Below, one piece after another: positions 28,680 through 50,453 of a DNA stretch of 64,000 bases. Location: positions 52,604 to 116,603 of the forward strand of contig CAZSXU010000008.1 in the NCBI GenBank assembly GCA_964610505.1, in the 5' to 3' direction. Every line of letters begins with the position of its first letter. The stretch's first letter is position 1. Origin of the DNA: an uncultured bacterium (GTDB lineage: Bacteria > Arandabacterota > Arandabacteria > JAGLYR01). The position numbers were made by a program, and so were the translations under genes. The notes below the pieces were generated by a model that ran no database searches, was not told where the DNA came from, and saw only the letters and a program-made list of their open reading frames with translations.

Positions 28680-28685
28680 AAAGTG

Positions 28686-28721
28686 ACGTGGTTCGTGGTT
28701 CGATATTCGTTCTCGGAGAAG
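28686..28721 (+). repeat. Intergenic heptamer-periodic repeat, copy 1
   Basis: ACGTGGTTCGTGGTTCGATATTCGTTCTCGGAGAAG, matching 36587-36629. Confidence 0.85.
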
Positions 28722-28760
28722 GGCATTGTAGAGAACCCGACATCCCGAGGAGGTTTGATC

Positions 28761-31700
28761 ATGCGCTCCTGGTTACCGATGTTCATCATCCTGGCGGTCC
28801 TCGTATCGGCGATGGATGCCGTCGCCCAGAGGGAGCGCCCTGCACAAGACCCGCGAGAGGCGCTGGGCCTGGATCGCGCCGGCTCTGCATCCTCCATTCC
28901 TTCGGGTGATGTCAAGGATTCGAACATCCACTGGTTCGGGTTCTATGATCCCGGTACGGGCACGGCGGTCCCGGATGAGACCTGGACGTTCGATCATGGC
29001 GCGGCGGATCCTTTCGAAGGATGGGTCTCGGAAGATATGACCGGGAACGACTTCACCGCCTGGAAACGAATCACCGAAGCCTCCTGGGCGGGGCACGACA
29101 ATGCCATACCGGCGCCTCTTCTCCAGGGAACGGCGAGCTATTGGGTCGGCTTCTTCGAAGACAGGGCGGACAGCCTCTGCTGGAGGAACGGTCTCGGCTA
29201 TGGAATCAACTGGCGCCAGCAACGGCTGATCAGCCCGAGTTTCACGTACGACGGAAGCGACTCTGTCCGGATCTCATTCCTGTACTTCAGCGACTGTGAA
29301 CCGGACTACGACGGTACCACCGTCCTGGTGAGCTTCCCCGCTCTTGACACGACGGTGACCCTGGACTTCTTCGAAGGACCGCACGGATCCCCTTCAGCGC
29401 CGACGCCTTTCTCCGAGACGGTCGATGTCGAGACGCTGAGCGGAGGTCAGCCCACGCCGTTCGCCCTGGTCTTTGAGTTTAACTCGGATGCGGGCTGGTG
29501 CGACGAAGATGGGCAGTTCAACAGCACATACGGGGCCTTTGGCGTAGACAGCATCACCATTGCGAACAACGTCGTGGAGGGGGACCAGTTCTTCGATTTC
29601 GAAACGGGCGACGAGGGGTTCACCACATCCTTCTTTCCGGGACTCGGGGATTTCTCGGCGATCAATCCGGTGGGCCCGTACGGACTGACCGAGCCGGACT
29701 GCAACCTGGATGGGAACGTCGTGTCTTTCCATGATGAGAGCTGGGGCCATCCGGATGACAGCACGATCAATATCGTTTCACCTTCCGTCCCTCTTAGCGA
29801 TATCGGTTCCGGCCCCTTCACAATCTTCGTCGAGCTCGACGTGTACGAGGACCTGCCGATCCACGCCCAGTGTGACTTCTGGCGCTACGGCTGGACCTAC
29901 TACCCGTACGACTGTCCTCCTGGCGGGTCCATGTGGTCTCCGCCCCAGATGACCACCCAGTACGAATACACAGGATCCACCGAAGAGCCCGGTTGTTTCC
30001 AGCTCCGTCGGTTCGGCCGACACGTTGAGGAGCAGGTCACCTACATTCCGGCAGACGCGGAATCCTGTCGCGTCGTTCTCCAGTTCCTGAACGCCTGTGA
30101 CTTCTACAACGGTACATTCTGTTCATGCGCTATCCCGTCGAACTTCAGTCCTCTTTTTGACAATATCCGCATCGGCGTGGTGGAAGCGGACAGCGTCCTT
30201 TTCGTTCCCAGCGGAGATTTCCCCACCATCCAGGCCGCTATCGATTCGTCCGTCAGCGGCAACCAGATCCTCCTCGCCGATGGGACCTACGCGGGAGATG
30301 GAAACCGAGATCTGGATTTCCAGGGGAAGGACATCACGGTTCGTTCCGAGAGCGGCGATCCTTCGGCCTGCATCATCGATTGTGAAGGGACACCGGGCGA
30401 ACCTCATCGAGGCGTGTTCTTCGATGGAGAAGGCCCGCTGGCGGTACTCAAAGACCTGACCATCACGGGCGGCTACGGCGATTACGGCGGAGCGATTCTT
30501 TGTGATGGATCCTCGCCCACGATGGAGGGCTGCGTCTTCACCGGCAACTCCAGCCAGTACGATGGTGGCGCGGTCTTCTGCCGGTCCACGTCCACTCCAA
30601 CCCTCACAGATTGTGTGCTGTCCAATAATGCCGCGGGAGACGACGGCGGGGGCTTCGGATGCCGTGACACCTCCGATGTCCAGCTGACGGGTTGCACGCT
30701 CATTGACAACACCGCCTCAGACGACGGAGGTGCCGTCTACTGTTACAACGCCACGCCGACCTTCACGAATTGTACGATTGCCGGGAACCATGCACCGGAC
30801 CAGGGCGCCGCACTGGGGCTGGTCGGATCCAGCGCGATCCTCAACAACACGATCATCGCACTGAATACCGACAACGCACCCTTCTACTGTTCGGGATCCA
30901 GCCCCGTACTCTCCTGCTGCGATGTGTACGGCAATGCGGGGGGCGACTGGACGGGATGCATTGGCGGGCAGGAGACCCTCCGCGACAATCTTTCCGCCAA
31001 TCCTCTCTTCTGTGATGCCGACAATGGCAACTATCTCCTGCGGTCATGCTCGCCCTGTCTGAACGCGCCCGGCTGCGGACAGGTGGGATCTCTCGGATTC
31101 GGCGACTGCCCCTCGCGCACCTGGTATGTGCCGGCGGACGCGCCCACGATCCAGGCCGCTATCGATCTTGCCTGTTCGGGCGACACCGTGCGCGTCGCCG
31201 CCGGAACCTATACGGGCGACGGGAATCGGGACATTGACTTCGGAGGCAAGGGGATTCTTCTCAGGGGTGACTCTTACCAGCCTTCCCTTTATGTACTCGA
31301 CGTCGGGGGAAGTGTGGGGGATCCGCACCGGGGATTCATTTTCCAGAGCGAGGAGGATTCCACGACGGTCGTGAGAGCCCTGACGATCACCGGTGGCTAT
31401 GCAACACAGGGCGGAGCCGTCAACTGTGATCACAGCTCCCCGGAATTGTCCAGCCTGGTCTTCTTGAGTAACACCGCCTCAGATGACGGCGGGGCCGTGT
31501 ACTGCACGAATTACAGCTCGCCGCGCGTACTGAATTGCGAAGCGGTGGATAACACGGCCGGAGACAACGGCGGAGGGTTCTACTTCAACTCCCATTGCCA
31601 ACCCTTTATCCACTACTGCAATGTCTTCGGAAACTCCGCCACCGACGCCGGGGGCGGAATCGGATATGCCAACTACTCGAGCGGTGATGGCCGCGGCTGT

Positions 31701-34700
31701 GACATTGCCCACAACCAGGCCGGCGTCGGCGGAAGCGGTGTCTTCTGCCACGGAAACTGCTACCCGGATTTCGAGAGCTTCACGATCTCCCACAACTCGA
31801 GTTCCGGAGGCAGTGTCCTCGCTCGCCAGAACTCCTTGATCGACTTGACCCACACCAATATCACGTTCGATGCGACCGGCCCGGCCGTCGCCTGTGAGAC
31901 GGGCGGAGCCGTGAGTCTCAACTGCTCGAATGTATACGGAAACGCCGGAGGGGATTACGTCGGCTGCATCGCCGGTGAGGAGGGAGCGGACAACAACTTC
32001 TCGGCCGACCCCATCTACTGCAATCCCGACAGCAACGATTTCTGGGTTCGAAGTGACTCGCCGTGCCTGATGCATCCCGGCTGCGGAGCCATCGGGGGCA
32101 TAGGCATCGGATGCTACGCCTGGAGAACCTGGCTGGTCTGTCCGGACGGATCCGGGGATTTCACGACGATCCAGGAAGCCGTCAGCGCTGCGGCCGAGCA
32201 GGACACCATCGAACTCTGTGACGGCATCTACACGGGCGACGGGAATCGGGATATCTCGACGTGGAAGAAGTTAACGATCCGATCACAGACTGGTGACCCC
32301 ACGGCCTGCATCATCGATGTCCAGGGGACCGCTGAGGAGTATCACCGGGCATTCACAATCAGCAGCTTCGGGGATGTCGATTTCGAAGGGATCACATTCA
32401 CCGGGGGCTATTCCGACTACTCCGGCGGCGCAATCAAATGCCAGGACTCGGATGTGGTGTTCCGGGACTGCATGTTCACAGATAACAACTGCGTGAGTAC
32501 GGGTGGAGCCGTATATGCCACCACGAGCTATAGTGGCTCCACGATCTTCTACGACTGCATCTTCATGAATAACACAGCCGAATACGGTGGGGCCGTCGTC
32601 TGTATGGGAAACGGGTACTTCCATGGCTGCGTGATGTCCGGAAACACGGCCGATCGCGGTGGAGCGATCTACGCGGCCTACGGTGGGGGCTCGTACTTCG
32701 ACTGCACCATTGTAGACAACCATGGAACCGAAGGCAGCGCGGCCTACCTGTCCTACCAAGCGGACCTCTATTTCAACAGGACGATCCTCGCGTTCAATAC
32801 GGGAAGCCAGACTGTGGAGTGCGGCGAACCCTCCGCCGACGCCCGTCTCTACTGCAGCGATGTCTTCGGGAACTCCGGCGGAGACTGGGTCGGCTGTATC
32901 GCCGACCAGGCGGGGAATATCGGCAACATCTCCGAGGATCCCCGATTCTGTGATCTCACGGGAGGAGACTACACCCTCCGGTGTACATCGCCCTGCCTGG
33001 ATCCCGCCGAGCCCAGCTGCGATGGCATGGGCGCATTGGGCGAAGGCGATTGCCCGAGGACGTGGTACGTTCCCTCGCAGTGTCCGACGATCCAGGCGGG
33101 CATCGATTCGGCCTGCTCGGGCGGCACAGTACTCATCGCCGACGGCACCTACGCGGGTGAGGGAAATCGGGATGTCGATTTCGGCGGCAAGGCCCTGACG
33201 GTCAGGTCGGAGAGTGGAAACGCCGACCTCTGCGTCATCGATTGCCAGGCGGATTCGCTCAATCCTCACCGGGGATTCATCTTCCAGAACGGTGAAGATT
33301 CCACGTCCGTGCTCCAGGATGTGACCATCACCAACGCCTACCATGGCCTCTACGGGGCCGGCATTCTGTGCTACGGGTCATCTCCAACAATCACCGGCTG
33401 CATCGTCCGAGACAACGCCACGGCCCGCGGGCCCGGAACGCACGGCGCCGGTATCTGCTGTAACTCAAGCGCCTCGCCGGAGATTACCGATTGTCTCATC
33501 TCCGACAACTCCGCCGACTACGGCGGCGGGATCTCCTGTCTCGGCTCGTCCAGTCCGGACATCGCCCGCTGCACAATCGCCGGGAACGCAGCAGGGGCGG
33601 GCGCGGCCCTCCTCTGCAGTGACGTGTCGAATCCCATCATCACCCGGTCGATTCTCGCGATGAACGCCGAGGGCGAGGCTATCCTCTGCTGGACCTATTC
33701 GAATCCTGCACTTGCCTGTTCTGACGTCTTCGGAAACGCGGGCGGCGATTGGGTCGGATGCATCGCCGGCCAGGATACACTTGACAACAACTTCTCTGCC
33801 GACCCCATCTTCTGCGGCGCAGAGGATGGCAACTACCATCTCCGGATCTGCTCTCCCTGTCTGAACGTGGACGGCTGTGGTCAGGTGGGCGCTCTGGGAT
33901 CGGGCGGCTGTGAGCGAGTCTGGCATGTTCCTGCCGAAGCACTCACAATCCAAGCCGGCATCGATTCGGCCGCCTGTGGCGACACGGTGGTCGTCGCCTG
34001 TGGTACCTACAACGAGCACAGCATCATCCTCAAGGGAGGAATCGTCCTTCGCAGTGAGACCGGGACGTACGACTGCGTCACCATCGACGCCGAACAACAG
34101 GGCACCATCTTCTATGCCCAGGATTTCTCGGACATCACCGAGATTGTGGGTCTCACGCTGACGGGAGGCCTCTTCTACAGCGGCGGGGCCATGTTTACGG
34201 ACGATTGCACTCTTCGAATCTCGAACTGCCACTTCACAGACAACAGGGGGCAGAGTCTGGGCGGAAACAGCTACGCGGCCGGCATCTTCGCGGGTGGCGA
34301 TGTCCATCTGTCCGGCTGCGTGTTCTCGAACAACATCGCCGAGGGGGCCGGGCACGGCGGGGCCATCTACGCGGCGGGCGATACAATGTCGGTCGTCAAC
34401 TGCACGGTTTACGGGAACGCCGCCCAGAGCGGCGAAGGGGCCGGGTTGTTTGTAACCGGGTCCGCTTCCGTGTATCTGGGCAACTCCATCATCGCCTTCA
34501 GTAGCGAGGGCGAGGCCGTCTATTGCACCGGCACCGGTACGGATCCAACCGTGAACTGCTGTGACATCTTCGGCAATGCAGGCGGCGATTGGGTCGGATG
34601 CATTGCGGGCCAGGACTCGCTCCACCACAACCTCTCGGTAGATCCCCTGTTCTGCGATGCCGGAGGCGGCGATTTCACCCTCTACAGTCATTCGCCCTGC

Positions 34701-36587
34701 GAGGCGGCAAACGCTTGGTCTTGTGGCACAATCGGAGCGAAGGGCGTCGGCTGCTATCTCCACAACATCGTACATGTGCCGGCGGATGAGCTCACGATTC
34801 AGGCGGGACTGAACACTGCCTTCGCGGGAGACACAGTCATCGTTGCCTGCGGAACGTACCATGAGCACAGCATCTGGATGAAGCCCGGCGTCTATCTCAG
34901 AAGTGAAACCGGACTACCCGACTGTGTGACGATTGAAGCCGACTCGCTCGGCCGGGTGATGTTCTGCTTCAATGCGGACAGTACCACCTGTATCGAAGGA
35001 TTCACGTTCACAGAGGGCTGGCCGGATGATTCCTTTGGCGGCGGTGGCATCTGGTGTTCGGGCGCATCACCCCGGTTAATCCGCCTGGCGTTCTTGAGGA
35101 ACTGGGGGTCCGGAGGCGGTGGACTGCGATGCGAATTTGATTCCTCGCCGTCACTGTTCGAGTGCACCTTCACAGAGAACTCATCACAGCTTATGGGCAG
35201 CGGCGGCGGGATGTCCTGCTACGATCACTCCTCTCCAACGCTCACCGACTGTGGCTTCTTCAACAATGTGGCGGATGGTCTGGGCTACGGCGGTGGAATG
35301 TCCGTCATTGGCTACTGCTCCCCGACTCTGACTCGCTGCACGTTCTCGGGAAACTCTGCGCTGTTTGACGGCGCGGGGGGTGGGTTTGCTTCCTACGGTT
35401 CGTCGCCCATTCTCATCGATTGCGACTTCACGGAGAACGTGAGCGCTCATGGTGGCGGTGTCTACAGCTCAAGAGATAGCTCGTTTACCATCATCGACAC
35501 GGAATTCCATGACAACGCCTCAGGCTGTGGCGATTTGGGCGGCGGGGGTGGACTCCTCTCGAGCTTCAGCGTGTTGGAGGTGAGCGGTTGCTCCTTTACG
35601 GGGAACTTCATCAACAGCGGCAACTGCACGTCGGGGGGCGGAGGCGGAGCGTACGCTGATTTCGGTTCTGCCGTCTTCACAGACTGCGTGTTTCGCCAGA
35701 ACTCGGCCGACCTGACGCAGGGTGGCGAGGGAGGCGGAGGTGGGGTGCTCTGCGGAAGAGATGCGTCGGCGACGTTCATGAATTGCATCTTCGACAGAAA
35801 CTCGTGTGACATTGAATACGGAGATTACTGGGGCGGGGGCGGCCTCTACTGCGCATCTCGGTCGACGGCGGCACTCACCGGGTGCACTTTCAGCGGTAAT
35901 TCCGCGGCGTCCAATCTGTACGGCGAACACAAAGGCGGAGCGATCTACCTCGACACAAATGTGTCCATCAGCCTGGATCACACGATTCTGGCTTTCAGTG
36001 AGTACGGCGAAGCCATCTTCTGCAATTATGCCCCGTCGGACACCGTGACCATCACCTGCTCTGACATCTACGGGAACGCGGGGGGCGACTGGGTCGGGTG
36101 CATCTCCGGCCTGTACGGAGCGAACGGCAACTTCTCCGAAGACCCTCTCTTCTGTGGGCGGTTCGGCGGAGACCTGACGCTTGGGATGCAATCGCCCTGT
36201 GCGCCGGATAACGCCCCGCCGGGCTGCGGTCTCATCGGCGCCGACAGTGTGGCGTGCGACATCACGGGTGTGGCGGAATCCCGAGACGTGCGACTCCCGA
36301 CCGCCTTCTATCTCGGCCCGGCCGTACCCAACCCGTTCAACCCTGTCACCGAGATCAGCTACGGCATCCCGATGAGTGACGGCGCGTCCCGCGTCCGGAT
36401 GAATGTCTACGACGTCCTCGGCCGGAATGTCCGCACGCTCGTGGATGCGGACCAGGCGCCGGGAATCTATCGAGTCACCTGGGATGGCTGTGACGACCGT
36501 GGGGTGGCGGTGGCGAGTGGAGTGTACTTCTATAGGGTCACGTGGAATGGAAAGAGTGAGACGAACAGGATGGTGCTGTTGAAGTAA
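28761..36587 (+). CDS. Giant secreted protein (about 2608 aa): N-terminal jelly-roll-like region, 6 beta-helix modules, CTD
   Basis: GGAGG SD before ATG 28761; signal peptide. Six modules, each running from (W/V)xVP...TIQ.A(I/V)D to (D/N)P.(F/Y)C...SPC...C...GA.G.GC; PNPFNP CTD. Confidence 0.85.
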   Translation: MRSWLPMFIILAVLVSAMDAVAQRERPAQDPREALGLDRAGSASSIPSGDVKDSNIHWFGFYDPGTGTAVPDETWTFDHGAADPFEGWVSEDMTGNDFTAWKRITEASWAGHDNAIPAPLLQGTASYWVGFFEDRADSLCWRNGLGYGINWRQQRLISPSFTYDGSDSVRISFLYFSDCEPDYDGTTVLVSFPALDTTVTLDFFEGPHGSPSAPTPFSETVDVETLSGGQPTPFALVFEFNSDAGWCDEDGQFNSTYGAFGVDSITIANNVVEGDQFFDFETGDEGFTTSFFPGLGDFSAINPVGPYGLTEPDCNLDGNVVSFHDESWGHPDDSTINIVSPSVPLSDIGSGPFTIFVELDVYEDLPIHAQCDFWRYGWTYYPYDCPPGGSMWSPPQMTTQYEYTGSTEEPGCFQLRRFGRHVEEQVTYIPADAESCRVVLQFLNACDFYNGTFCSCAIPSNFSPLFDNIRIGVVEADSVLFVPSGDFPTIQAAIDSSVSGNQILLADGTYAGDGNRDLDFQGKDITVRSESGDPSACIIDCEGTPGEPHRGVFFDGEGPLAVLKDLTITGGYGDYGGAILCDGSSPTMEGCVFTGNSSQYDGGAVFCRSTSTPTLTDCVLSNNAAGDDGGGFGCRDTSDVQLTGCTLIDNTASDDGGAVYCYNATPTFTNCTIAGNHAPDQGAALGLVGSSAILNNTIIALNTDNAPFYCSGSSPVLSCCDVYGNAGGDWTGCIGGQETLRDNLSANPLFCDADNGNYLLRSCSPCLNAPGCGQVGSLGFGDCPSRTWYVPADAPTIQAAIDLACSGDTVRVAAGTYTGDGNRDIDFGGKGILLRGDSYQPSLYVLDVGGSVGDPHRGFIFQSEEDSTTVVRALTITGGYATQGGAVNCDHSSPELSSLVFLSNTASDDGGAVYCTNYSSPRVLNCEAVDNTAGDNGGGFYFNSHCQPFIHYCNVFGNSATDAGGGIGYANYSSGDGRGCDIAHNQAGVGGSGVFCHGNCYPDFESFTISHNSSSGGSVLARQNSLIDLTHTNITFDATGPAVACETGGAVSLNCSNVYGNAGGDYVGCIAGEEGADNNFSADPIYCNPDSNDFWVRSDSPCLMHPGCGAIGGIGIGCYAWRTWLVCPDGSGDFTTIQEAVSAAAEQDTIELCDGIYTGDGNRDISTWKKLTIRSQTGDPTACIIDVQGTAEEYHRAFTISSFGDVDFEGITFTGGYSDYSGGAIKCQDSDVVFRDCMFTDNNCVSTGGAVYATTSYSGSTIFYDCIFMNNTAEYGGAVVCMGNGYFHGCVMSGNTADRGGAIYAAYGGGSYFDCTIVDNHGTEGSAAYLSYQADLYFNRTILAFNTGSQTVECGEPSADARLYCSDVFGNSGGDWVGCIADQAGNIGNISEDPRFCDLTGGDYTLRCTSPCLDPAEPSCDGMGALGEGDCPRTWYVPSQCPTIQAGIDSACSGGTVLIADGTYAGEGNRDVDFGGKALTVRSESGNADLCVIDCQADSLNPHRGFIFQNGEDSTSVLQDVTITNAYHGLYGAGILCYGSSPTITGCIVRDNATARGPGTHGAGICCNSSASPEITDCLISDNSADYGGGISCLGSSSPDIARCTIAGNAAGAGAALLCSDVSNPIITRSILAMNAEGEAILCWTYSNPALACSDVFGNAGGDWVGCIAGQDTLDNNFSADPIFCGAEDGNYHLRICSPCLNVDGCGQVGALGSGGCERVWHVPAEALTIQAGIDSAACGDTVVVACGTYNEHSIILKGGIVLRSETGTYDCVTIDAEQQGTIFYAQDFSDITEIVGLTLTGGLFYSGGAMFTDDCTLRISNCHFTDNRGQSLGGNSYAAGIFAGGDVHLSGCVFSNNIAEGAGHGGAIYAAGDTMSVVNCTVYGNAAQSGEGAGLFVTGSASVYLGNSIIAFSSEGEAVYCTGTGTDPTVNCCDIFGNAGGDWVGCIAGQDSLHHNLSVDPLFCDAGGGDFTLYSHSPCEAANAWSCGTIGAKGVGCYLHNIVHVPADELTIQAGLNTAFAGDTVIVACGTYHEHSIWMKPGVYLRSETGLPDCVTIEADSLGRVMFCFNADSTTCIEGFTFTEGWPDDSFGGGGIWCSGASPRLIRLAFLRNWGSGGGGLRCEFDSSPSLFECTFTENSSQLMGSGGGMSCYDHSSPTLTDCGFFNNVADGLGYGGGMSVIGYCSPTLTRCTFSGNSALFDGAGGGFASYGSSPILIDCDFTENVSAHGGGVYSSRDSSFTIIDTEFHDNASGCGDLGGGGGLLSSFSVLEVSGCSFTGNFINSGNCTSGGGGGAYADFGSAVFTDCVFRQNSADLTQGGEGGGGGVLCGRDASATFMNCIFDRNSCDIEYGDYWGGGGLYCASRSTAALTGCTFSGNSAASNLYGEHKGGAIYLDTNVSISLDHTILAFSEYGEAIFCNYAPSDTVTITCSDIYGNAGGDWVGCISGLYGANGNFSEDPLFCGRFGGDLTLGMQSPCAPDNAPPGCGLIGADSVACDITGVAESRDVRLPTAFYLGPAVPNPFNPVTEISYGIPMSDGASRVRMNVYDVLGRNVRTLVDADQAPGIYRVTWDGCDDRGVAVASGVYFYRVTWNGKSETNRMVLLK
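36348..36469. repeat. 122-bp block with 2 mismatches to 40531-40652 (CTD-coding regions)
   Basis: Direct alignment at offset 4183; mismatches only at 36372 and 36434. Confidence 0.9.
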
Positions 36588-36629
36588 CGTGGTTCGTGGT
36601 TCGATATTCGTGGTTCGTTCTCGGAGAAG
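36587..36629 (+). repeat. Intergenic heptamer-periodic repeat, copy 2 (one extra unit)
   Basis: ACGTGGTTCGTGGTTCGATATTCGTGGTTCGTTCTCGGAGAAG, directly after the stop. Confidence 0.85.
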
Positions 36630-36651
36630 AGCATCATAGGAGAGTGCACCC

Positions 36652-39600
36652 ATGACCAAACACATCGTGATTGCATCCCTGTTCGTGGTGATTGTCTTGC
36701 TTCCTTCCACCGGACAGGCCGCTGTCTGGGAGGTCCCGCTCGAATGTCCCACGATTCAGGCAGGTATTGACTCGGCCGCCAGCGGAGACACGGTGCGTGT
36801 GGCCAATGGGATCTACACCGGTGACGGAAATCGGGATATCAGCTATCTCGGCAAGGGCGTCACGGTACAATCCGCAAGCGGCGATCCAACCCTCTGCGTC
36901 ATCAATTGCGGCGGGTACCCTCACCGAGGATTCCGGTTCGTCAGCAGCGAAGGTCCCGGGTCCGTGCTGGACGGATTCACGATCACGAACGCGGACAACT
37001 TGACCGGTGCAGCGATCCGATGCAGCTGGGCCTCGCCAGTGATTTCCAACTGCATCCTCACAGGCAACCAGGGCAACGAGGGGAGTGCCGTCAGCGGACT
37101 GTCATCGTCCTTCACCCTCTCCGGCTGCATCGTCACGAACAACTCGTGTGTGATGGGCCCGATCTACATGGACTCCGGGGCACCGACGCTGGAACACTGC
37201 GTCATTGCCGGCAACAGTGCCACCATGGGAATCCTGTTCTGCCACGACTCCGACCCCACGATTACGGGATGCACTCTCGCCGACAACTCCGCGACGGTCG
37301 GCGGGGCGATCTATGCGAATGGATGGGCCGATGTAACCGCCGAGAACACGATTGTCGCCTTCAGCGGCGATTGGCCGATCTTCGACTGCTGGGACGAGGG
37401 TCGGATCACACTCTCCTGCTGTAACGTGTACGGAAATGACGGGGGCGATTACGTAAGTTGCGTCGCCACCCAGGGATCCGTGCGCGATAATTTCTCGTCC
37501 GACCCCTTGTTCTGTGATGCGGAGGGTGGAGACTATCGCCTCCACTGCGCCTCGCCCTGTCTGAACGCGCCGGGGTGCGGGCTGGTCGGCGCACTCGGGC
37601 TGGGAGATTGTGTGCGGGCCTGGAGCGTTCCCGCCGAGGTCGCCACCATTCAGGCGGCCATCGATCTGGCCTGCGACGGCGACACGATCCTTGTGGCCGA
37701 CGGGACGTACACGGGTACCGGCAACCGGGATCTTGACTTCGGCGGTAAGGCGATCGTTGTCCGGTCGGAGACCGGAGATCCCAGTACCTGCATCATCGAT
37801 TGCGACGGAAGTGAGCTAGATGAGCATCGGGGTTTTCTCTTCAACTCGGGAGAGGACTCGACATCCGTTGTGATGGGCTTTACGATCCGGAACGCCTACA
37901 TGGACACCTATACAGGCGCCGCTTTCGAATGCTCGAACGGGTCATCCCCCACGATCACGTACTGCGTCATGGCCGAGAACACGTCTCTTCGCGGCCCGGC
38001 ATTGAACTGCTCGGACAGCAGCCCTATCGTCTCGCATTGCACCATAGTAGACAACCATCCTACCTTTTCCACTCTGTATGTCTTCGGGAGCGCCCATGTG
38101 CGAATGAGTCACTGCATCGTGGTCTACAGCGACGGGATGCAGGCTTTCCGATGCGGAGGCGAAGCAACGGCGTCGCTCACATGCTGCGATGTCCACCAGA
38201 ACGGAACCGGCCTCTCGCCCGACTGGGGCTATTGTCTGGAGGGTCAGGGCGACATCAACGGGAACATGAGCGCGCCACCCCGCTTCTGTGACCGCGAAGC
38301 AGGTGACTATCACCTGAACGCCAGCTCCCCCTGTGCCACGGCCCCGTGCGGGATCATGGGGGCACTCGGCGTCGGCTGCGCGCCGCGGATCTGGCATGTC
38401 CCGGCCGACGCCCCGACCATCGCGGCCGGGCTCGATTCGGCCGCGGCCGGAGATACCGTTGAGGTCGCGTGCGGTACCTACTACGAGCACGATCTCGACT
38501 TCGATCTGCCCATTTGCCTCAGAAGTGAAACCGGTGATCCGGAGTGTGTTTTGATCGACGCCGGAGGGCTGGGAGAGGTGATGAGCTGCGGCTACTACTA
38601 CTATGCGGACAGCCTGTCTTCGATCAGGGGGATCACGTTCACCGGCGGTCGGTGCGGGGCAGGCCCCGGGCTGTACTGTTGGAGTGCGGATCCGCGGATC
38701 CACAACTGCGTATTCACCGGCAATCATGCCATCACAGACTATCAATCCGGGTCGGGCGGGGCCATGTTCGTGTCGATGTGTTCCCCGGTACTCACCGACT
38801 GTGTCTTCCACAAGAATGTTGCTGGAGATACGACCGGCTGGGGTGGAGCCGTGTGGGTCTCGGGCTGGGCCGCGCATCCCCTGTTTGAACGCTGCACGTT
38901 TTCTCAGAACTCTGTCCGAGGACAGGGAGACGGGGGCGCGTTGAGCGTGTCGGGAGATGCTCATGCAGACCTGTTCAACTGCATCATTGCCTTCTCAAAG
39001 ATCGGCGAGGCCGTGGCCTGCGACAGCGTCGGCGACGTTACGCTGGCCTGCTGTGACGTATTCGGAAACGCGGGCGGTGACTGGGTCGGAAACATTGCCG
39101 GACAAGCGGGGACCAACGGCAATTTCGAAGCGGATCCGATCTTCTGCGACACGCTCGCGGGTGATTTCGCTTTGCGAAACGACTCGCCCTGCGCGGCCGG
39201 GCACAATCCGACATGTGGGCGGATCGGGGCCCGGGCCGTGGGGTGTCTCCGTCCGCCGGGCGTCCTCCATGTGCCGTCCGAGTTCCCGACCATTCGGGCT
39301 GCCGTGGATTCGAGTATTACGGGCGATTCCGTGGTGGTCGCCTGCGGGACCTACTACGAGCATGACATCGAGATGAAGTCCGGGGTCACGGTGGTCAGTG
39401 AAACCGGTGAACCCGATTGTGTGACGATCGATGCCCAGGGACTGGGGCGGATCATTTACTGCAACGATGTGGACAGCACGGCGCACATTGTGGGATTCAC
39501 GATCACGGGTGGATCGGAAAGTGCCGGCGGCGGAGTGTATTGCTCGCAGTCCTACGTGAATATCACTCGTTGCCTGTTGACCGCCAATACTGCCTCTGAT

Positions 39601-40770
39601 CTCATCTGGGGCGGCTTCGGCGGCGGCGCCTATTGTGGGGGCGGATCTCCCGCCTGGTCCTGGTGTACATTCACAGATAACCTGGCGGTGCGCTCGATGA
39701 CTGCGGGTGGATACGGCGGAGCCGTATACTGCCTGAGCTCATCGCCGACGTTCACAAACTGCACGTTCTTCGGAAACGAGGATGACGGGCATGCCGGCGG
39801 TCTTCGCCTGAAAGACTCCTCGCCGACGCTCGTGAATACGATCATCGCCTCCAGCGTGTCGGGGGCCGCCGTGGATTGCGCGGGGACCTCGAATCCGGTA
39901 CTCGTCTGCTGTAACATCCACGGCAACGCGGGCGGTGACTGGGTCGGGTGCATTGCCGGACAGGACTCCACCGACCACAACTTCTCAGCAGATCCCATGT
40001 TCTGCGAGGCGGACAGCGCCGACTTCACGCTTCAGGGTATTTCCCCCTGTGCATCTGACAACAACCCCTCGTGCGGACTCGTCGGAGCACAGTCCGTCGG
40101 GTGCGCGGCCGATTTCACGACGATCCAGGTGGTGGGTGATTTCAATGGGTGGGATGAAGGCACGCCCGGTATGACGGAAGAGGAGCCGCGGGTGTGGGTG
40201 GACACCCTTGCGGTCGATGCGGGATGTCACTACATGAAGTTCCGGACGGACAACGCATGGGCGTATCCGCCGGACTACGGGACATGCACAGGGCAGGATA
40301 CGACGTGCAGCGTGGGTCTTGCCGGCCAGGTGTGTCTGGTGGACCAGCCAGAGACGGCTCTCGGTCAGATCGATTTCCCCTCAACCGGCAACTACGAATT
40401 CCGGCTGGATGAAGCGGATTCGACATATACGATCACACTCGTGGCAATGACAGGTGTAGTCGAGCCCGGCCAGCGAACGCCCGTTGTCTTTTTCCTCGGG
40501 CCGGCGGTGCCGAATCCGTTCAATCCCGTGACCGAGATCAGCTACGGCATCCCGGTGAGTGACGGCGCGTCCCGCGTCCGGATGAATGTCTACGACGTCC
40601 TCGGCCGGAATGTCCGGACGCTCGTGGATGCGGACCAGGCGCCGGGAATCTACCAGGTTACCTGGGATGGACGCGATCACAACGGGGTGGCGGTCGCCAG
40701 CGGCGTGTACTTCTATCGGGTTACATGGATGGAGAAGAGCGAGACGAAGCGGATGGTGCTGCTGAAGTAG
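36652..40770 (+). CDS. Secreted protein: 4 beta-helix modules, SusE/CBM-like module, CTD
   Basis: GGAGAG SD; signal peptide; four TI(Q/A/R)A(G/A)(I/L/V)D modules; VVGDFNGW...MKFRTDNAW...DYG module; PNPFNP CTD. Confidence 0.85.
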   Translation: MTKHIVIASLFVVIVLLPSTGQAAVWEVPLECPTIQAGIDSAASGDTVRVANGIYTGDGNRDISYLGKGVTVQSASGDPTLCVINCGGYPHRGFRFVSSEGPGSVLDGFTITNADNLTGAAIRCSWASPVISNCILTGNQGNEGSAVSGLSSSFTLSGCIVTNNSCVMGPIYMDSGAPTLEHCVIAGNSATMGILFCHDSDPTITGCTLADNSATVGGAIYANGWADVTAENTIVAFSGDWPIFDCWDEGRITLSCCNVYGNDGGDYVSCVATQGSVRDNFSSDPLFCDAEGGDYRLHCASPCLNAPGCGLVGALGLGDCVRAWSVPAEVATIQAAIDLACDGDTILVADGTYTGTGNRDLDFGGKAIVVRSETGDPSTCIIDCDGSELDEHRGFLFNSGEDSTSVVMGFTIRNAYMDTYTGAAFECSNGSSPTITYCVMAENTSLRGPALNCSDSSPIVSHCTIVDNHPTFSTLYVFGSAHVRMSHCIVVYSDGMQAFRCGGEATASLTCCDVHQNGTGLSPDWGYCLEGQGDINGNMSAPPRFCDREAGDYHLNASSPCATAPCGIMGALGVGCAPRIWHVPADAPTIAAGLDSAAAGDTVEVACGTYYEHDLDFDLPICLRSETGDPECVLIDAGGLGEVMSCGYYYYADSLSSIRGITFTGGRCGAGPGLYCWSADPRIHNCVFTGNHAITDYQSGSGGAMFVSMCSPVLTDCVFHKNVAGDTTGWGGAVWVSGWAAHPLFERCTFSQNSVRGQGDGGALSVSGDAHADLFNCIIAFSKIGEAVACDSVGDVTLACCDVFGNAGGDWVGNIAGQAGTNGNFEADPIFCDTLAGDFALRNDSPCAAGHNPTCGRIGARAVGCLRPPGVLHVPSEFPTIRAAVDSSITGDSVVVACGTYYEHDIEMKSGVTVVSETGEPDCVTIDAQGLGRIIYCNDVDSTAHIVGFTITGGSESAGGGVYCSQSYVNITRCLLTANTASDLIWGGFGGGAYCGGGSPAWSWCTFTDNLAVRSMTAGGYGGAVYCLSSSPTFTNCTFFGNEDDGHAGGLRLKDSSPTLVNTIIASSVSGAAVDCAGTSNPVLVCCNIHGNAGGDWVGCIAGQDSTDHNFSADPMFCEADSADFTLQGISPCASDNNPSCGLVGAQSVGCAADFTTIQVVGDFNGWDEGTPGMTEEEPRVWVDTLAVDAGCHYMKFRTDNAWAYPPDYGTCTGQDTTCSVGLAGQVCLVDQPETALGQIDFPSTGNYEFRLDEADSTYTITLVAMTGVVEPGQRTPVVFFLGPAVPNPFNPVTEISYGIPVSDGASRVRMNVYDVLGRNVRTLVDADQAPGIYQVTWDGRDHNGVAVASGVYFYRVTWMEKSETKRMVLLK

Positions 40771-41567: not shown

Positions 41568-43031
41568 CTAGTCTCTCCGCCACTCCCCCACCACACTCCG
41601 CTCGTGATCGTACATCTTCACGATGAGCGGCATCTCGCCCGGGAGAGCGTTGGTCGAACAGGCGAAGCACGGGTCGTAGGCCCGGAAAGCCATTTCAACC
41701 ATGTTCAAAATGCCGTCGTTGACGTTCCCGGCCTTGATCAGCTTCTGGGCGGCGCTCCGGATGTCCATGCACATGCATCCGTTGTTGAAGACCGTCGCCA
41801 CGATCAGGTTCACATCCGTCACGATCCCGTTCTTGTCCGTCTTGTAGTGATGGATCAGGGTCCCTCTCGGAGCCTCGATGATCCCTACGCCTTCCTCGGG
41901 TGTTTCGTGTGGAATGTCTCGCACGTGGGTGCTCGTGATCTCCGGGTCCCGGATGAGCCGCTGCATCGTCTCGGCCGCCTGCATGAGTTCGATGATCCGC
42001 GCCCAGTGCATGGCCAGCGTATGCCGGACCGGTTTCCCGCCCAGGGTTTTGTACATCTTCTCGTACTCTTCCTGGGCCTTCGGCGTCGCCATCCCACTGG
42101 CCACGTTCAGGCGGGCCAGTGGCGCAGCCCGCATCAGACCACTCTCCGGGCCGTCGACCAGGCCCTTCCATCCGATCTTCTTCAGGAACGGGAACTTGAG
42201 ATACGTCCACGGCTCCACGTGCTCGCCGATGTGCTCGAGATACTCGTTCTCTTTGAACCGGAGGAACTCGTTTCCGTCCGGATCCGTGACTTTGACCGTC
42301 CCATCGTAGAAGTTCGGATGATCGTTCTCATCCACCAGGCCGATGTCATACGTCCGGAGCGCATAAACATCGCTCAGGATCAGATCGACGTAGCTCTGGT
42401 TCTTCAGCACGATGTCTTCGAACGCCTTGAAGGTGAACGAGCAGAAGTCCACGATGGAATCCGTCCACGGCTCGATCGTCTCCCGCTCTTCTTCCTTGAG
42501 CGGCCGGCTCATCCCTCCGGGCAGTGCACAAACGGGGTGCGTGGCCTTCCCGCCCAACGTCTCCTGAATCTTCTGCGCGTAGGCCCGGTGCTTGATGACT
42601 TCGGCCCCGATCTCCAGGCCGACTGTCTCGATCACGCCGAGAATGTTCCGCTTCGCCGGATCGGCGTCGGGACCCACGATGAAGTCGGGGGCGCCCAGAG
42701 CGTAGAAATGCGCGATGTGCGAATGCGTCATCTGAGCGTTGTAGAACAGCTCCCTCAGCTTTCTCGCCGCCGACGGGATCTTCGCCTTGAATACTGCATC
42801 TACGGCCTTACCCGAGGCCATGTGGTGTGCCTCGGGTCAGACACCGCAGAGTCGGGTGGTGATCCTGGGCAGCTCCTCCACGGGGCGTCCGATGCAGAAC
42901 TGCTCAAATCCCCGGAGCTCGGGAATCTGGAAATACGCATTCGTGGCGTTGCCTTCCTCATCGAGGAAGATCTCAATCTTCCCATGGCCCTCGAGCCGGG
43001 TAATGGGATCGATCGTGATTCGCTTGCTCAT
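41568..43031 (-). CDS. mvhA: Group 3c (Mvh-type) [NiFe]-hydrogenase large subunit, 487 aa, with an in-frame TGA (codon 65) read as probable selenocysteine
   Basis: Track ORFs 42837-43031 and 41568-42821 are in the same frame and join across TGA 42837-42839: RLEGH...RLCGV-TGA-PEAHHMASGKAVD...EAPRGTLIHHY...RAYDPCFACSTN. The start overlaps the mvhG stop (ATGA). Confidence 0.88.
42802..42821 (-). promoter_or_regulatory. Candidate bacterial SECIS element of mvhA
   Basis: AUGGCCU-(CGGGUA)-AGGCCGU: 7-bp stem, apical loop 22 nt after the UGA, G at loop position 2. Confidence 0.55.
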
Positions 43032-46538: not shown

Positions 46539-47420
46539 CTATCCGATGAGTCCTTTCTCCCTCAGCATGGGCCGGGGATCCACATGATGATCGTCGAAAT
46601 GACAGACCTCCTCGCCCAGACCCAGCGCAAGGGCCATCAGTTGGGTGAAATAGAGAATCGGGATTTCGGGTATCGAGTTGCCTCGCGCCGAGAACCGTTT
46701 CTGGCTCTCATCGAGATTGAAGTGGCACAGGGGACAGCTGGTGACGATCCCATCCGCTCCCCGCCGGTGCGAGGACTCGCAAATCTTATACGCCAGGTCG
46801 TCGACAATCTCCGGCTCGCCCACCGTGTGGTAGGAGCCACAGCACTCCGTCGCGTACGGTTCATAGGGTGTGTCGGCCCCCAGACTTCTGAGAAGATCGT
46901 CCAGAACCGTCGGCGACTCCACGCTGTCGATCGCCACTTCCTTGGGTCTCGTCAACAGACAGCCGTAGTAGGAAACCAGCTTCACCCCATCCAGCGATGT
47001 ATCCACGTGACCTCGTATGCCCTCAAAACCGATGTCGTCCCGGAGAATCTCGAGCAGGTGAAGGACCTTCACCCTCCCCCGATAGTCCTCCTCACGATCC
47101 ATGAAGCTGTTGATCTTCTCCAGACGATCCGGATCGTTCTGCACAAGCTGGTTGCTCATCCTGAGCGTGTGAAAGCACATGGTGCAGAGGGTCACCAGCC
47201 GGGAGCTCCCCATCTCCTGCGTCCGAACCAGCACGCGAATGGGGCCCACGTGATGCATCAGGTTGTCGGAGGAGAGACCGGCCACCGTACCGCAGCAATT
47301 CCAGCGCGGCAGTTCCGCCAGATTCACGTCCAGCTTCTTCATGGCCGCACGGGCGGACTCGTCGAGATTCAGAGCCGTTGTGGTCAACGTGCAGCCTGGG
47401 TAGTAGGGAATGTCTCTCAT
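46539..47420 (-). CDS. hdrB: Heterodisulfide reductase subunit B (two CCG domains)
   Basis: YYPGC...NCCG...LCTMC and YYGC...ECCG...TSCPLC...ILYFTQL; true start MRDIPYYPGC at 47420. Confidence 0.9.
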   Translation of the reverse strand: MRDIPYYPGCTLTTTALNLDESARAAMKKLDVNLAELPRWNCCGTVAGLSSDNLMHHVGPIRVLVRTQEMGSSRLVTLCTMCFHTLRMSNQLVQNDPDRLEKINSFMDREEDYRGRVKVLHLLEILRDDIGFEGIRGHVDTSLDGVKLVSYYGCLLTRPKEVAIDSVESPTVLDDLLRSLGADTPYEPYATECCGSYHTVGEPEIVDDLAYKICESSHRRGADGIVTSCPLCHFNLDESQKRFSARGNSIPEIPILYFTQLMALALGLGEEVCHFDDHHVDPRPMLREKGLIG

Positions 47421-47423
47421 TGC

Positions 47424-47506
47424 GCACCCTGCTCTGTTTCTTCCGAGCAGCCTGCTCCAGTTCTTCGGAGCACCCTGCTCCGGTTCCTCGGAGCACCCTG
47501 CTCCGG
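47424..47506. repeat. 3.6 copies of a 23-bp tandem repeat; each unit can form a small hairpin
   Basis: GCACCCTGCTCTGTTTCTTCCGA / GCAGCCTGCTCCAGTTCTTCGGA / GCACCCTGCTCCGGTTCCTCGGA / GCACCCTGCTCCGG, between hdrC and hdrB. Confidence 0.9.
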
Positions 47507-47509
47507 CAG

Positions 47510-47959
47510 TTAGGAGGAGAACTTGCGGAAGCAGCTGATCACCGCAATCTGGGGCACCCGCCTCAAGGTCTCCTCGGGAATCCTCGCCGGATCCTGTTGG
47601 TCGAGTCCTTTTCTCAGATGAATCTGGCGCACCGCCTCGGCGACTTTTGCCAGGTCGATTCCTCGCGGACATCGGGCCAGGCAGGCAAAACACGACGCAC
47701 AGGTCCAGACCCCTCTGGACTCGGCAATCTCGGAAAAACAACCGATCTGAAGCAGCTTCATCCACTGCGCGGGCGTGTAGTCCATGTAGTCGGACGTCGG
47801 ACACCCGGCCGCGCAGCAACCACACTGAATGCACCGAAATACGTCGATTCCGCTGATCTCCCGAATTTTCTCAAGGAGCCCGGCGTGGCGCGATCGGGTG
47901 TGTGGATGGATGGTATCGTCGCTCTCCACGGACCGTAGCGTGAGGGGAAATCGACCCAT
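47510..47959 (-). CDS. hdrC: Heterodisulfide reductase subunit C (2x[4Fe-4S])
   Basis: CIQCGCCAAGCP and WTCASCFACLARCPRGI; SD GGGAGAG upstream. Confidence 0.88.
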   Translation of the reverse strand: MGRFPLTLRSVESDDTIHPHTRSRHAGLLEKIREISGIDVFRCIQCGCCAAGCPTSDYMDYTPAQWMKLLQIGCFSEIAESRGVWTCASCFACLARCPRGIDLAKVAEAVRQIHLRKGLDQQDPARIPEETLRRVPQIAVISCFRKFSS

Positions 47960-48023
47960 CGTACTCTCCCGTCAGAGATTGGGATTCAGTTCCGGAATCC
48001 CGGTGGATAACCGTCGCACGGTT

Positions 48024-49715
48024 CTACGAGTATGTTTCCTTCAACCCCACGGTGCCACAGTAGTCCTTCGACAGCTGCCGCTTTCGAACATCGGGGTTCG
48101 AGTAGTCCGGCAACAGCATCGGGGACACACGGTCCGTGCGCACTCCCTCGCGGTCAATCTCTTCGTTGTACTTCTTCACGTGTTCCAGGCTGAGTTTCCC
48201 GTCCTTGGCCTCGGACGTGGCATAGCGGGCAGCGTGTTTGCCCGCCCTCTTGCCAAAGACGCACACGTCCAGAAGCGAATTCCCCATGAGACGATTCTCC
48301 CCATGGATGCCGCCCGCTACCTCCCCGGCCGCGTAGAACCCGGGAACGCTCGTCTGACAGTACGCGTCGATGTTCAACCCGCCGTTCTGGTAGTGGAGCG
48401 TTGGATACACGAGCATCGGCTCCTTCGAGATATCGATGTCGTGCCTTCTGTACACCTTGAGTTTGCCCAGGAATTCGCGCTCCACGGTTCCTTCACCCAG
48501 CAGATCGTCGATCATCGGCGAATCCACCCAGACACCGGAACGTCCTCCGGGGACGGGAACTCCGTTGCCCCTCTCCGCGCATTCGCGAATGAACGCGGCG
48601 GCCTCTACGTCTCGAGGCTCCCGCTCAAACACAAATTGCTCACCGTGGACGTTGACGATGTTGGCGCCGATCCCCCGGAATTTCTCCGTCAACAGAAGTC
48701 CCTCCAGTTGTTCCGGGAACACCGCGCCCGTGGGGTGAAACTGAACGGTATGAAGGAATGAGAGCTCCACGCCCGCCCGGTACCCCATCACCAGACCGTC
48801 GCCGGTGGCACCGTAGTGATTCGTGGTCATGAAGTTCTGAACGTGGAGTCTCCCGGATCCGCCCGTGGCCATGACTACCGCTTTGGCCTTGATTACCTGG
48901 TATTCCTCGGTCTCGTGATTGAACACGACAGCGCCGGCGCACTCGCCGTGTTCGCTGAGCACGAGCTCCACCGCCGAGGAGAATTCGACGATTCGAATGT
49001 CGTCCGGATAATTCTTCACTTCATCCCGGAGGGTCCGCATGATCTCCGCGCCCGTGATGTCAGAAGCGAAGTGCATCCGCTTGCGGCTCGTGCCCCCCCC
49101 ATGCATACTCTGGAGCCGCCCGTCGGGAAACTTGGTGAACATGCAGCCGAGGTTCTCCAGCCATGCCATGGTCTCCGGGGCATCCATCACCAGGGCTTCG
49201 ACGAGTTCGGGAACGTTCTCGAAATGTCCTCCGCCGATGACGTCCAGGTAGTGGTAGTAGGGCGAGTCCTTTTCTCCCTTTGAGGCGGCCTGGATTCCGC
49301 CCTCGGCCATCATCGTATTCGCATCGCCCATGCGCAGCTTCGTGGTGATGATGACCCTGGCCCCCTCCTTGCGGGCCATGAGCGCCGCAGAGGCCCCCGC
49401 TCCTCCGCCACCGACCACGAGAACGTCCGTCTCATAGGCGGGATTCATGAGATCCACGAGATCGGGGCGGACCCTGCTTCTGGCTTCCAGAAGGTCGACA
49501 ATCTCGGGTGAGATCTCGTACCCCTTATTCACTCCAATCCGGATCGGCCTCCTGGAACCAGCCTTGTGGTCGGGATGGTGCGCCCGTAGAAGCTCGGTTC
49601 GCTCCTCCAGCGACATCTCGGGGAACTCGTACCCCTCCCTCTTCCGCCGGACTCTCTCGGGCCGGGTGGCTTCGACCTTCTTGATCAGCTCCTTCAGTTC
49701 CGGTGTGTACGGCAT
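48024..49715 (-). CDS. Soluble fumarate reductase/succinate dehydrogenase-family flavoprotein (TfrA/SdhA-like)
   Basis: VLVVGGGGAG, AEGGIQAA, GHGRLH-equivalent GSGRLH, QFHPTG, LLTE, PRD, PTLHYQNGG and HGENRLMGNSL motifs; all dicarboxylate-site residues recognisable. Confidence 0.85.
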   Translation of the reverse strand: MPYTPELKELIKKVEATRPERVRRKREGYEFPEMSLEERTELLRAHHPDHKAGSRRPIRIGVNKGYEISPEIVDLLEARSRVRPDLVDLMNPAYETDVLVVGGGGAGASAALMARKEGARVIITTKLRMGDANTMMAEGGIQAASKGEKDSPYYHYLDVIGGGHFENVPELVEALVMDAPETMAWLENLGCMFTKFPDGRLQSMHGGGTSRKRMHFASDITGAEIMRTLRDEVKNYPDDIRIVEFSSAVELVLSEHGECAGAVVFNHETEEYQVIKAKAVVMATGGSGRLHVQNFMTTNHYGATGDGLVMGYRAGVELSFLHTVQFHPTGAVFPEQLEGLLLTEKFRGIGANIVNVHGEQFVFEREPRDVEAAAFIRECAERGNGVPVPGGRSGVWVDSPMIDDLLGEGTVEREFLGKLKVYRRHDIDISKEPMLVYPTLHYQNGGLNIDAYCQTSVPGFYAAGEVAGGIHGENRLMGNSLLDVCVFGKRAGKHAARYATSEAKDGKLSLEHVKKYNEEIDREGVRTDRVSPMLLPDYSNPDVRKRQLSKDYCGTVGLKETYS

Positions 49716-50453
49716 TTAGCTGACTCCTAGGAGGTGTTCCTTGCTCTGGGGTTCCCACATCTCATCGGCCATGTTGGGTTCCACTTCCCGTTCCACATAC
49801 AGCTTCTTCAGCTGCCCTCGGTCCATTTCCATGAGTTGCATGATCGGACCCGTATACTGTCCGTTCGTCACAGCCTCGACCTGCTTGTGAAGATGTTTCG
49901 CCCGAGGAGCCAGAAAGCGACCGTAGAGCCTCCTTGCCAGAATGGCGGCGTTGTAGTGCGAAATCTCGGCCGGGCACCGCGACGTACACAACCCGCACAT
50001 GATGCAGTCGAACGAGAGCTCGGCCGCCTTCTTGATATCTCCCCGCATGATTGCGTTGACGTAGTCCATGACCTCGATCTCCATCGGGCAGGACTTCGTG
50101 CACGTGTTGCAGCTCACGCACTTGAAGAGCTCGGGATAAAGGGCCTGGAAAGTCGCCACCGAGGCCTGCACCGTCTTCTTGTCAAAGACCGACCTCTTGG
50201 CCGGGAAGAACGGCAGCTGGGCCAGGTACATGTCGGGCTGAACCAGCGTCTGACACGCCAGTCCGATCTCGATCTTGTGGCTGTTCGGAAAACGGTACAC
50301 GGTACCGCACGCGCCGCAGATTCCGCCCCTGCAGCCGCATCCTCTCACCAGCTGGAATCCCGCGTACTCCATTGCCTTGAGGATGGTGAGCGTATCCGGC
50401 ACTTCGTACGTCGTGCCCATGATGTGGATGGGTATCAACCGTGCCTGTTCCAT
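49716..50453 (-). CDS. SdhB/TfrB-like iron-sulfur protein ([2Fe-2S] plus 2x[4Fe-4S])
   Basis: CRGGICGAC...LAC, CVSCNTCTKSCP and CIMCGLCTSRCP; SD GGGAG; first gene of the operon. Confidence 0.85.
   Translation of the reverse strand: MEQARLIPIHIMGTTYEVPDTLTILKAMEYAGFQLVRGCGCRGGICGACGTVYRFPNSHKIEIGLACQTLVQPDMYLAQLPFFPAKRSVFDKKTVQASVATFQALYPELFKCVSCNTCTKSCPMEIEVMDYVNAIMRGDIKKAAELSFDCIMCGLCTSRCPAEISHYNAAILARRLYGRFLAPRAKHLHKQVEAVTNGQYTGPIMQLMEMDRGQLKKLYVEREVEPNMADEMWEPQSKEHLLGVS

Follow-up and report, generated by a model that had tools for sequence, protein, structure and literature searches.

Does an in-frame TGA that stands exactly where a [NiFe] hydrogenase large subunit should carry the second cysteine (Cys) of its N-terminal metal-binding motif mark a damaged gene, or is it a programmed codon for selenocysteine (Sec)? 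The question is raised by an mvhA-like gene in a stretch of 64,000 nucleotides (hereafter the window) of contig CAZSXU010000008.1 (positions 52,604 to 116,603; assembly GCA_964610505.1) from an uncultured bacterium of the Arandabacterota. We conclude, with a probability of about 0.82, that the TGA at 42839..42837 is a programmed Sec codon in the large subunit of a group 3c (Mvh-type, Hdr-associated) hydrogenase. The argument turns on the following parts of the gene.

41568 to 43031, minus strand: mvhA-like [NiFe] hydrogenase large-subunit gene, 487 codons including the TGA, with a TAG stop at 41570..41568
42837 to 42839, minus strand: in-frame TGA, codon 65, the proposed Sec, standing for the second Cys of the N-terminal motif, which bridges Ni and Fe
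42825 to 42854, minus strand: N-terminal Ni-binding motif R-L-C-G-V-U-P-E-A-H (U, Sec), residues 60-69
41658 to 41675, minus strand: C-terminal Ni-binding motif DPCFAC, residues 453-458, with Cys at both positions, the canonical Sec site not being used
42802 to 42821, minus strand: predicted core hairpin of a conserved selenocysteine insertion sequence (SECIS), AUGGCCU-CGGGUA-AGGCCGU, at +16..+35 after the UGA, in codons M71-A-S-G74-K-A-V
42811 to 42836, minus strand: alternative hairpin CCCGAGGC.CA..UGGCCUCGGG, starting directly after the UGA, at +1..+26

Translation of 43031..41568 gives a frame whose single internal stop is the TGA at codon 65. The DNA around it, CGA CTC TGC GGT GTC TGA CCC GAG GCA CAC, encodes R60-L-C62-G-V-stop65-P-E-A-H69, 422 open codons lie between the TGA and the TAG stop, and the C-terminal DPC retains its Cys, all of which agrees with what a first-pass annotation of this DNA had described. 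A strong Shine-Dalgarno sequence, AAGGAG, precedes the ATG at 43031. As that annotation had also foreseen, gene callers cut mvhA into pieces of 64 and 417 amino acids. The product belongs to the Pfam family NiFeSe_Hases (PF00374, E 2.6e-38), and its closest solved homologue is the MvhA of the Hdr-Mvh complex (5ODC, E 1e-115), in which the second Cys of RICGIC aligns with the TGA. Assignment to group 3c (Mvh/Vhu type) is based on the presence of both metal motifs in the NiFeSe_Hases fold, with the TGA replacing the second Cys, on the gene order hdrA-mvhD-mvhG-mvhA-hycI, and on the best PDB matches (5ODC for MvhA, 8RVU/5ODC for MvhD). The NCBIfam VhuA equivalog NF041785 scored 429 bits against a cut-off of 800; this model describes archaeal VhuA, and its low score therefore concerns orthology to VhuA and not membership of group 3c. 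The canonical [NiFeSe] arrangement, with Sec at the first Cys of DPCxxC, is absent, DPCFAC being written entirely with Cys codons, and the NCBIfam HysA and NiFeSe models score far under their cut-offs. What the gene does carry is the N-terminal arrangement known as CXXU: a TGA replaces the second Cys of CXXC, and the reading frame is intact both before and after it.

A sequencing or assembly artefact, in favour of which we found nothing, is refuted by the recurrence of the TGA. The 417-residue downstream piece (P0001) is present in the protein database from eight contigs, and the four of these that were read (L002-L005), independent assemblies from four different samples, carry the same TGA with identical flanks; this supplies the confirmation that had been sought beforehand and, by excluding a read or assembly error, leaves the artefact with a probability close to nil. 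Two further relatives are interrupted at the same point. The contig of P0005 (87% identical) has a 64-residue open reading frame (ORF) followed, 15 nt past its stop codon, by a 414-residue ORF, a layout from which the same split at the same codon is read; P0006 (84% identical) begins at the same Met as the downstream piece, its DNA (L001) extending just 1 nt upstream of the internal ATG. When the 417 downstream codons are compared between the window and P0006, the ratio of nonsynonymous to synonymous substitution rates (dN/dS) is 0.09, at a dS of ~1.4, which indicates that the part downstream of the TGA is translated and under selection; purifying selection acts on both halves of mvhA. TGA also serves as the normal stop in 10 of 24 confident genes of the window, including hdrA and mvhG of the same operon, which rules out a genome-wide reassignment of the codon.

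That the TGA is a nonsense mutation, and mvhA a pseudogene or a gene being lost, might be argued from its closest full-length homologues, which are Cys-type, from the lack of Sec machinery in the window, and from broken downstream frames in five other TGA-type genes (L023, L036, L045, L079 and L099). We nevertheless hold this to be very improbable, given 417 intact downstream codons with so low a dN/dS, relatives at 84-87% identity that break or start at the same point, the TGA in 94 other species, a synonymous-site conservation in the hairpin that is specific to TGA-type genes (see below), and catalytic motifs and a maturation protease that are all intact. The mvhA TGA is neither an error nor the sign of a pseudogene. 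The frame breaks in the five genes lie 76-140 codons past the TGA; all but that of L099 are in MFD metagenome-assembled genomes (MAGs), and they could be assembly indel errors or true decay.

The distribution of the TGA was assessed by a DNA-level scan of one genome per GTDB species with the pattern R-[LIVMF]-C-G-[VIM]-TGA-P-x-A-H, which carries ~36 bits and for which we estimated some 10-20 chance matches. It returned 115 matches, 106 of them hydrogenase large subunits with a TGA at this codon; the other nine lack a hydrogenase context and were discarded as evident chance matches. Most of the 106 loci that are not cut by a contig end continue for ~415-490 open codons (~422 in group 3c) up to DPCxxC. 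Group 3c-like genes (P-x-A-H-H) account for 94 loci and a second type, Group 1, for 12. The 94 group 3c carriers span about ten phyla. Across the carriers of either type, the record titles name Dehalococcoidia and other Chloroflexota, Nitrospirota, Krumholzibacteriota, Latescibacteria, UBP1, KSB1, Thermodesulfobacteriota including Syntrophaceae, Acidobacteriota, Myxococcales, Neomarinimicrobiota and, within the Bacillota, Desulforudis, Desulfotruncus, Desulfoscipio, Peptococcaceae, Moorellales and Syntrophomonas. Three carriers are cultured: Desulforudis sp. Tu-874, Desulfotruncus alcoholivorax DSM 16058 and Desulfoscipio geothermicus DSM 3669. The comparison of TGA with TGY among relatives, proposed with the first-pass annotation, thus finds the TGA conserved together with its flanks and a SECIS, and not a singleton.

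The second-type loci belong to Syntrophomonas (L028, L064, L069, L103, L107, L119), Chloroflexota (L023, L081, L112) and Nitrospirota (L083, L100), with L089 in addition; they have the TGA at the same bridging position and hairpins of their own, for example GCUAGCG-CGGGUU-CGCUGGC. The product of L028 (Syntrophomonas) reaches 695 bits on NCBIfam NF033181, above the cut-off, which makes it a HysA-related Group 1 enzyme, and the second type is probably that of the Group 1 CXXU sequences in Baltazar 2011. In seven loci of Krumholzibacteriota/UBP1 (L011, L013, L017, L030, L049, L068, L118), 380-399 open codons, not ~64, precede the mvhA TGA, which points to an in-frame fusion of mvhG with mvhA, or to two genes parted only by a read-through context. 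One protein called 'selenocysteine-containing' by a source (P0011) was rejected, its DNA having TGT at this codon and only the name pointing to Sec.

The split reported by gene callers might also be taken at face value, with a 64-residue peptide and a 417-residue protein made from the ATG at 42821 assembling in the manner of VhuA/VhuU. That ATG lies 5 codons past the TGA, and both pieces are indeed called. Such an assembly would lack a metal ligand, and P-E-A-H-H would be missing from both pieces; we looked for a Shine-Dalgarno sequence upstream of the internal ATG and found none; and the Met is conserved in Cys-type genes too, while Leu (CTG/TTG/TTA) takes its place in 29/94 TGA-type genes. 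A naturally split gene is accordingly a highly doubtful explanation.

More telling for a programmed Sec codon is the RNA downstream of it. The first-pass annotation had mentioned a SECIS-like hairpin, and a hairpin does follow; there are, however, two that exclude each other, and the conserved one is that at 42821..42802 and not the more stable one directly after the UGA. The former has its stem at +16..+22 and +29..+35 and its apical loop at +23..+28. Bacterial SECIS elements place the apical loop 16-37 nt from the UGA, a range into which the window hairpin falls. Their consensus also has a G at position 1 or 2 of the apical loop (PMC13582414), and the window hairpin has it at position 2. We compared the codons of the 94 TGA-type group 3c sequences with those of 77 Cys-type genes encoding the same P-E-A-H-H-M-A peptide; the latter came from a metagenome scan with the peptide pattern VCPEAHHM, which finds Cys-type genes only and gives no Sec:Cys ratio. 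Counted from the TGA, the codons of the hairpin are used as follows.

Ala +7: GCC in 87/94 TGA-type genes; GCC 33, GCT 16, GCG 16 and GCA 10 in the 77 Cys-type genes
Ser +8: TCG in 88/94 TGA-type genes; TCC 16 and TCG 15 in Cys-type genes, where the residue is Ser in 44/77 and otherwise Ala or Gly
Gly +9: GGT for 55/56 Gly in TGA-type genes; Ala, Thr, Val or Ser (GCC 20, ACC 13) in Cys-type genes
Lys +10: AAG in 92/94 TGA-type genes; AAG 42 and AAA 35 in Cys-type genes
Ala +11: GCC in 86/94 TGA-type genes; GCC 26, GCG 24, GCT 14 and GCA 9 in Cys-type genes

Synonymous sites in the hairpin are thus frozen in TGA-type genes and free in Cys-type genes, and codons close to the hairpin are unconstrained even in the former (Ala +3, 53/20/12/9; Asp +13, 50/44; Val +15, 27/24/21/19). 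All five core pairs are formed in 88/94 TGA-type sequences as opposed to 10/77 of the Cys type, and the mean local folding energy is -9.3 versus -5.9 kcal/mol. The apical loop reads CGGGUA, as in the window, in 55 TGA-type sequences and CGUGYA in 32; its position 2 is G in 88/94 at fixed register, and in three Nitrospirota after a register shift of one nucleotide. At the protein level the two types differ most clearly at residue 74, which lies within the SECIS loop (G, C or V in TGA-type, T, A or S in Cys-type proteins; G in the window), and this split indicates that the RNA constrains the amino acid. In the nearest Cys-type relatives, P0002 (GCC TCG GCC AAG GCG) and P0004 (GCT TCG GCC AAG GCA), aligned with row L065 left out, both stem and loop are degraded. 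The hairpin is therefore kept in TGA-type genes beyond what the protein sequence demands, and is lost in Cys-type orthologues. With a stem that is nearly invariant, the structure is supported by selective conservation and not by compensatory change. The core of the window hairpin is identical to the consensus, and the hairpin at +16..+35 is the conserved, predicted SECIS. Rfam gave no SECIS-family match at gathering score in the window, only one chance match to SECIS_2 on the wrong strand (E 7.1); bacterial SECIS elements being gene-specific, this carries little weight.

Several points weigh against a programmed Sec codon. When the RNA past the UGA of the window is folded, the most stable hairpin begins at +1 (CCCGAGGC..GCCUCGGG, -16.8 kcal/mol), and it excludes the SECIS hairpin, which reaches -10.0 kcal/mol. 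The 64-kb window holds no sel genes, no tRNA-Sec and no second selenoprotein, so that the Sec competence of the organism is unproven. The two full-length relatives closest to it, at 80% and 78% identity, are Cys-type. Selenium at this site is itself a prediction.

As to the first of these, the +1 hairpin pairs the P-E-A codons with the A-S-G codons and is not conserved across other species; a small number of further TGA-type genes (L062, L111, L094) show pairings that resemble it. Ribosome footprints imply that its nucleotides sit in the mRNA channel of the ribosome once the UGA is in the A site, and without the first 12-14 nt the SECIS hairpin is the minimum-energy fold. As to the second, Pfam scans of 27 ORFs of the window detected no selA, selB or selD, ARAGORN and Rfam detected no tRNA-Sec in its 64 kb, a tRNA-Met being the only tRNA found, and a scan of the window for ORF pairs joined by a TGA yielded no credible selenoprotein gene besides mvhA. 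Sec competence of the organism would follow from a predicted SECIS identical to the conserved consensus and from the behaviour of its relatives. Among loci with the mvhA TGA, mvhD has a TGA at the position of the window's Cys65 (GG-C-HPGDCHY) in 28/73 and hdrA at that of Cys201 in 16/60; the stop codon at these sites is TGA in every case. Those lineages, it follows, use Sec, often at several sites of one complex, and some operons (e.g. L006, L026, L054) would encode three selenoproteins. The mvhD and hdrA ORFs of the window are uninterrupted and have Cys exactly at these two sites, which bears out the earlier statement that both genes are all-Cys; Sec use by the window organism, if any, is within this complex confined to MvhA.

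A related objection concerns the amino acid inserted. The same hairpin and SelB might serve to decode the UGA as Cys, with a Cys-charged tRNA (tRNA-ReC or allo-tRNA), which would leave an all-Cys [NiFe] site. Takano et al. raise exactly this limit for N-terminal Sec motifs, cautioning that genomes with tRNA-ReC might read the UGA of such a motif as Cys (PMC13582414), and the only tRNA seen within the window is tRNA-Met. Since TGY gives Cys without any recoding machinery, a switch that many relatives have made, a Cys product makes it hard to see why ~94 species should have kept both TGA and SECIS, and relatives also use TGA where MvhD and HdrA classically have Sec. We therefore regard recoding as Cys as unlikely, and return to Sec as the preferred reading.

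In a neighbour-joining tree built from 272 group 3c sequences, TGA-type genes lie scattered among Cys-type ones, parsimony requiring at least 16 changes, and the full-length sequences nearest to the window gene are Cys-type; the tree is rough (Kimura distances, biased sampling) and supports an interspersed mosaic, nothing beyond that. The mosaic resembles that reported for Group 4. The same SECIS core recurs everywhere, for which reason repeated loss of Sec to Cys appears more likely than repeated gain. Of the full-length homologues of MvhA, the closest comes from a Candidatus Eisenbacteria MAG.

The genes around mvhA are the following.

43028 to 44029, minus strand: mvhG-like gene of the small subunit (Oxidored_q6), sharing 4 nt with the start of mvhA, with TGA as stop
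44033 to 44449, minus strand: mvhD (FlpD), all Cys, including C65
44442 to 46427, minus strand: hdrA-like flavoprotein, Cys at C201, with TGA as stop
40940 to 41428, minus strand: HycI-type endopeptidase of hydrogenase maturation, with 162 aa in the gene call of L002 and a longest ORF that reaches 41596
46539 to 50453, minus strand: upstream part of the cluster, encoding an HdrB-like CCG protein, a small Fer4 protein, a FAD_binding_2 flavoprotein and a 2Fe-2S/4Fe-4S protein
48024 to 49715, minus strand: the fumarate-reductase-like FAD_binding_2 flavoprotein of this part
49716 to 50453, minus strand: its 2Fe-2S/4Fe-4S protein

The gene order of the upstream part (46539..50453) is also found in the contigs of P0005, P0002 and P0004. 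Together with hdrA-mvhDGA, these genes may encode an H2-dependent Hdr-type complex with an acceptor module. Residues 453-461 of MvhA (41649..41675, minus strand) read DPCFACSTN, with Asn at the usual His/Arg of the protease-cleavage site (DPCxxCxxH/R). The C-terminal STN is common to the closest relatives P0002, P0004, P0005 and P0006, more distant relatives having ATH, and a HycI-type protease gene still follows mvhA despite the Asn.

From these elements a course of events can be proposed. Translation would start at the ATG at 43031 and, at UGA65, the hairpin 16-35 nt downstream (42821..42802) would be exposed and would recruit SelB-GTP-Sec-tRNASec; Sec would be inserted and 422 more codons translated. 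Metal insertion dependent on Hyp proteins would be followed by cleavage by the adjacent HycI-type protease, the selenolate at the second N-terminal Cys position would bridge Ni and Fe, and the resulting CXXU-type [NiFeSe] hydrogenase would supply electrons to the HdrA/MvhD module. We infer SelB-dependent decoding, selenium in the protein and the physiological partner, and the bridging geometry would follow by homology.

Elsewhere in the window, 933..13726 (minus strand) holds four tandem paralogues of 1037-1105 aa with Reg_prop (two-component regulator propeller) repeats and a C-terminal FlgD_ig / CHU_C (type IX secretion-like) domain. On the plus strand, 19758..40770 is taken up by four giant ORFs in a row (1433, 1488, 2634 and 1372 aa), the last of which has beta-helix (pectate-lyase-like) and FlgD_ig domains in Pfam; all four probably encode surface proteins secreted by an FCB-group (Fibrobacterota-Chlorobiota-Bacteroidota) bacterium. 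The tRNA-Met gene (61084..61158, minus strand) covers part of the longest TilS ORF (59636..61183) at its 5' end, which indicates that the true tilS start lies further downstream.

We know of no natural CXXU-type hydrogenase that has been purified, nor of any measurement of selenium in such an enzyme; to our knowledge, Sec is a terminal Ni ligand in every natural [NiFeSe] hydrogenase studied biochemically or structurally. The canonical enzymes, HysA of Desulfovibrio/Desulfomicrobium and VhuU and FruA of Methanococcus, share with the window gene one metal ligand encoded by UGA, but their Sec is the first, terminal Cys of DPCxxC, where the window has Cys, its own Sec being predicted at the bridging N-terminal position. 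The MvhA of 5ODC (Methanothermococcus thermolithotrophicus) has the same mvhD/mvhG/hdrA partners as that of the window; it is, however, archaeal and all-Cys, and the window cluster adds a fumarate-reductase-like flavoprotein and extra Fe-S/CCG proteins. The premise of the first-pass annotation, that canonical [NiFeSe] hydrogenases carry Sec in a C-terminal UXXC motif and that Sec in an N-terminal CXXU would bridge Ni and Fe, agrees with the account of Takano et al. (PMC13582414). Its Sec reading is supported by the sequence tests above and is less new than it had seemed: CXXU was flagged in Groups 1 and 3 in 2011 and in Group 4 in 2026, and the equivalent C79U variant has been engineered. Baltazar 2011, as cited, described one Group 3 and two Group 1 sequences with an N-terminal CXXU whose Sec was predicted to bridge Ni and Fe (PMC13582414), although accounts of that work differ slightly, another speaking of a 'bridging C579' (PMC8020662). 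As cited there, those sequences resemble the window mvhA in having a Sec codon at the second N-terminal Cys and an all-Cys C-terminal motif, known from sequence alone. Unlike the three sequences so cited, the window motif stands in the hdrA-mvhDGA cluster of an FCB-type bacterium and belongs with 94 GTDB group 3c genes sharing one SECIS. Takano et al. 2026 (Front Microbiol, Sept 2026) reported CXXU, the motif also present in the window, UXXC and UXXU in Group 4 hydrogenases (PMC13582414); those enzymes are membrane-bound, energy-converting and rare (~0.2%), whereas that of the window is soluble, Hdr-linked, of group 3c, and has another SECIS sequence.

Evans et al. 2021, who termed natural N-terminal cases 'purported examples', engineered Sec at each of four positions of E. 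coli Hyd-1 (PMC8020662). Their C79U variant, at the equivalent site, had 13% of native H2-oxidation activity, the highest of the four, and a lower KM for H2, and Sec at the window position is thus compatible with catalysis; C79U, a Group 1d enzyme, was produced artificially through UAG suppression with EF-Tu, not by natural SECIS/SelB decoding (PMC8020662). For FrhA and MvhA/VhuU, a recent review and a recent survey of selenoproteomes give the C-terminal motif only, and in the searchable literature we found no account of how frequent the N-terminal motif is in group 3c or of a shared SECIS. The kind to which the window gene belongs is thus already known, if biochemically uncharacterised; what is new is this member and how widely its family extends.

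On balance we lean towards the view that CXXU-type group 3c hydrogenases form a large, overlooked Hdr-linked class, with 94 or more GTDB species from some ten phyla, one SECIS (GGCCU-CGGGUA-AGGCC), often Sec in MvhD and HdrA as well, and repeated exchange of Sec and Cys. Gene callers split or truncate such genes, and hydrogenase surveys of MAGs will consequently under-count or misjudge them. Natural selenium bridging Ni and Fe has only been predicted and was once imitated by engineering; the window offers a clean, well-supported predicted example of a variant that is common in the Hdr-coupled group 3c hydrogenases of anaerobes, and with three carriers in culture the prediction of a bridging Sec is directly testable. 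If the class is as large as it appears, bridging selenium would confer a selective benefit in electron-bifurcating H2 oxidation.

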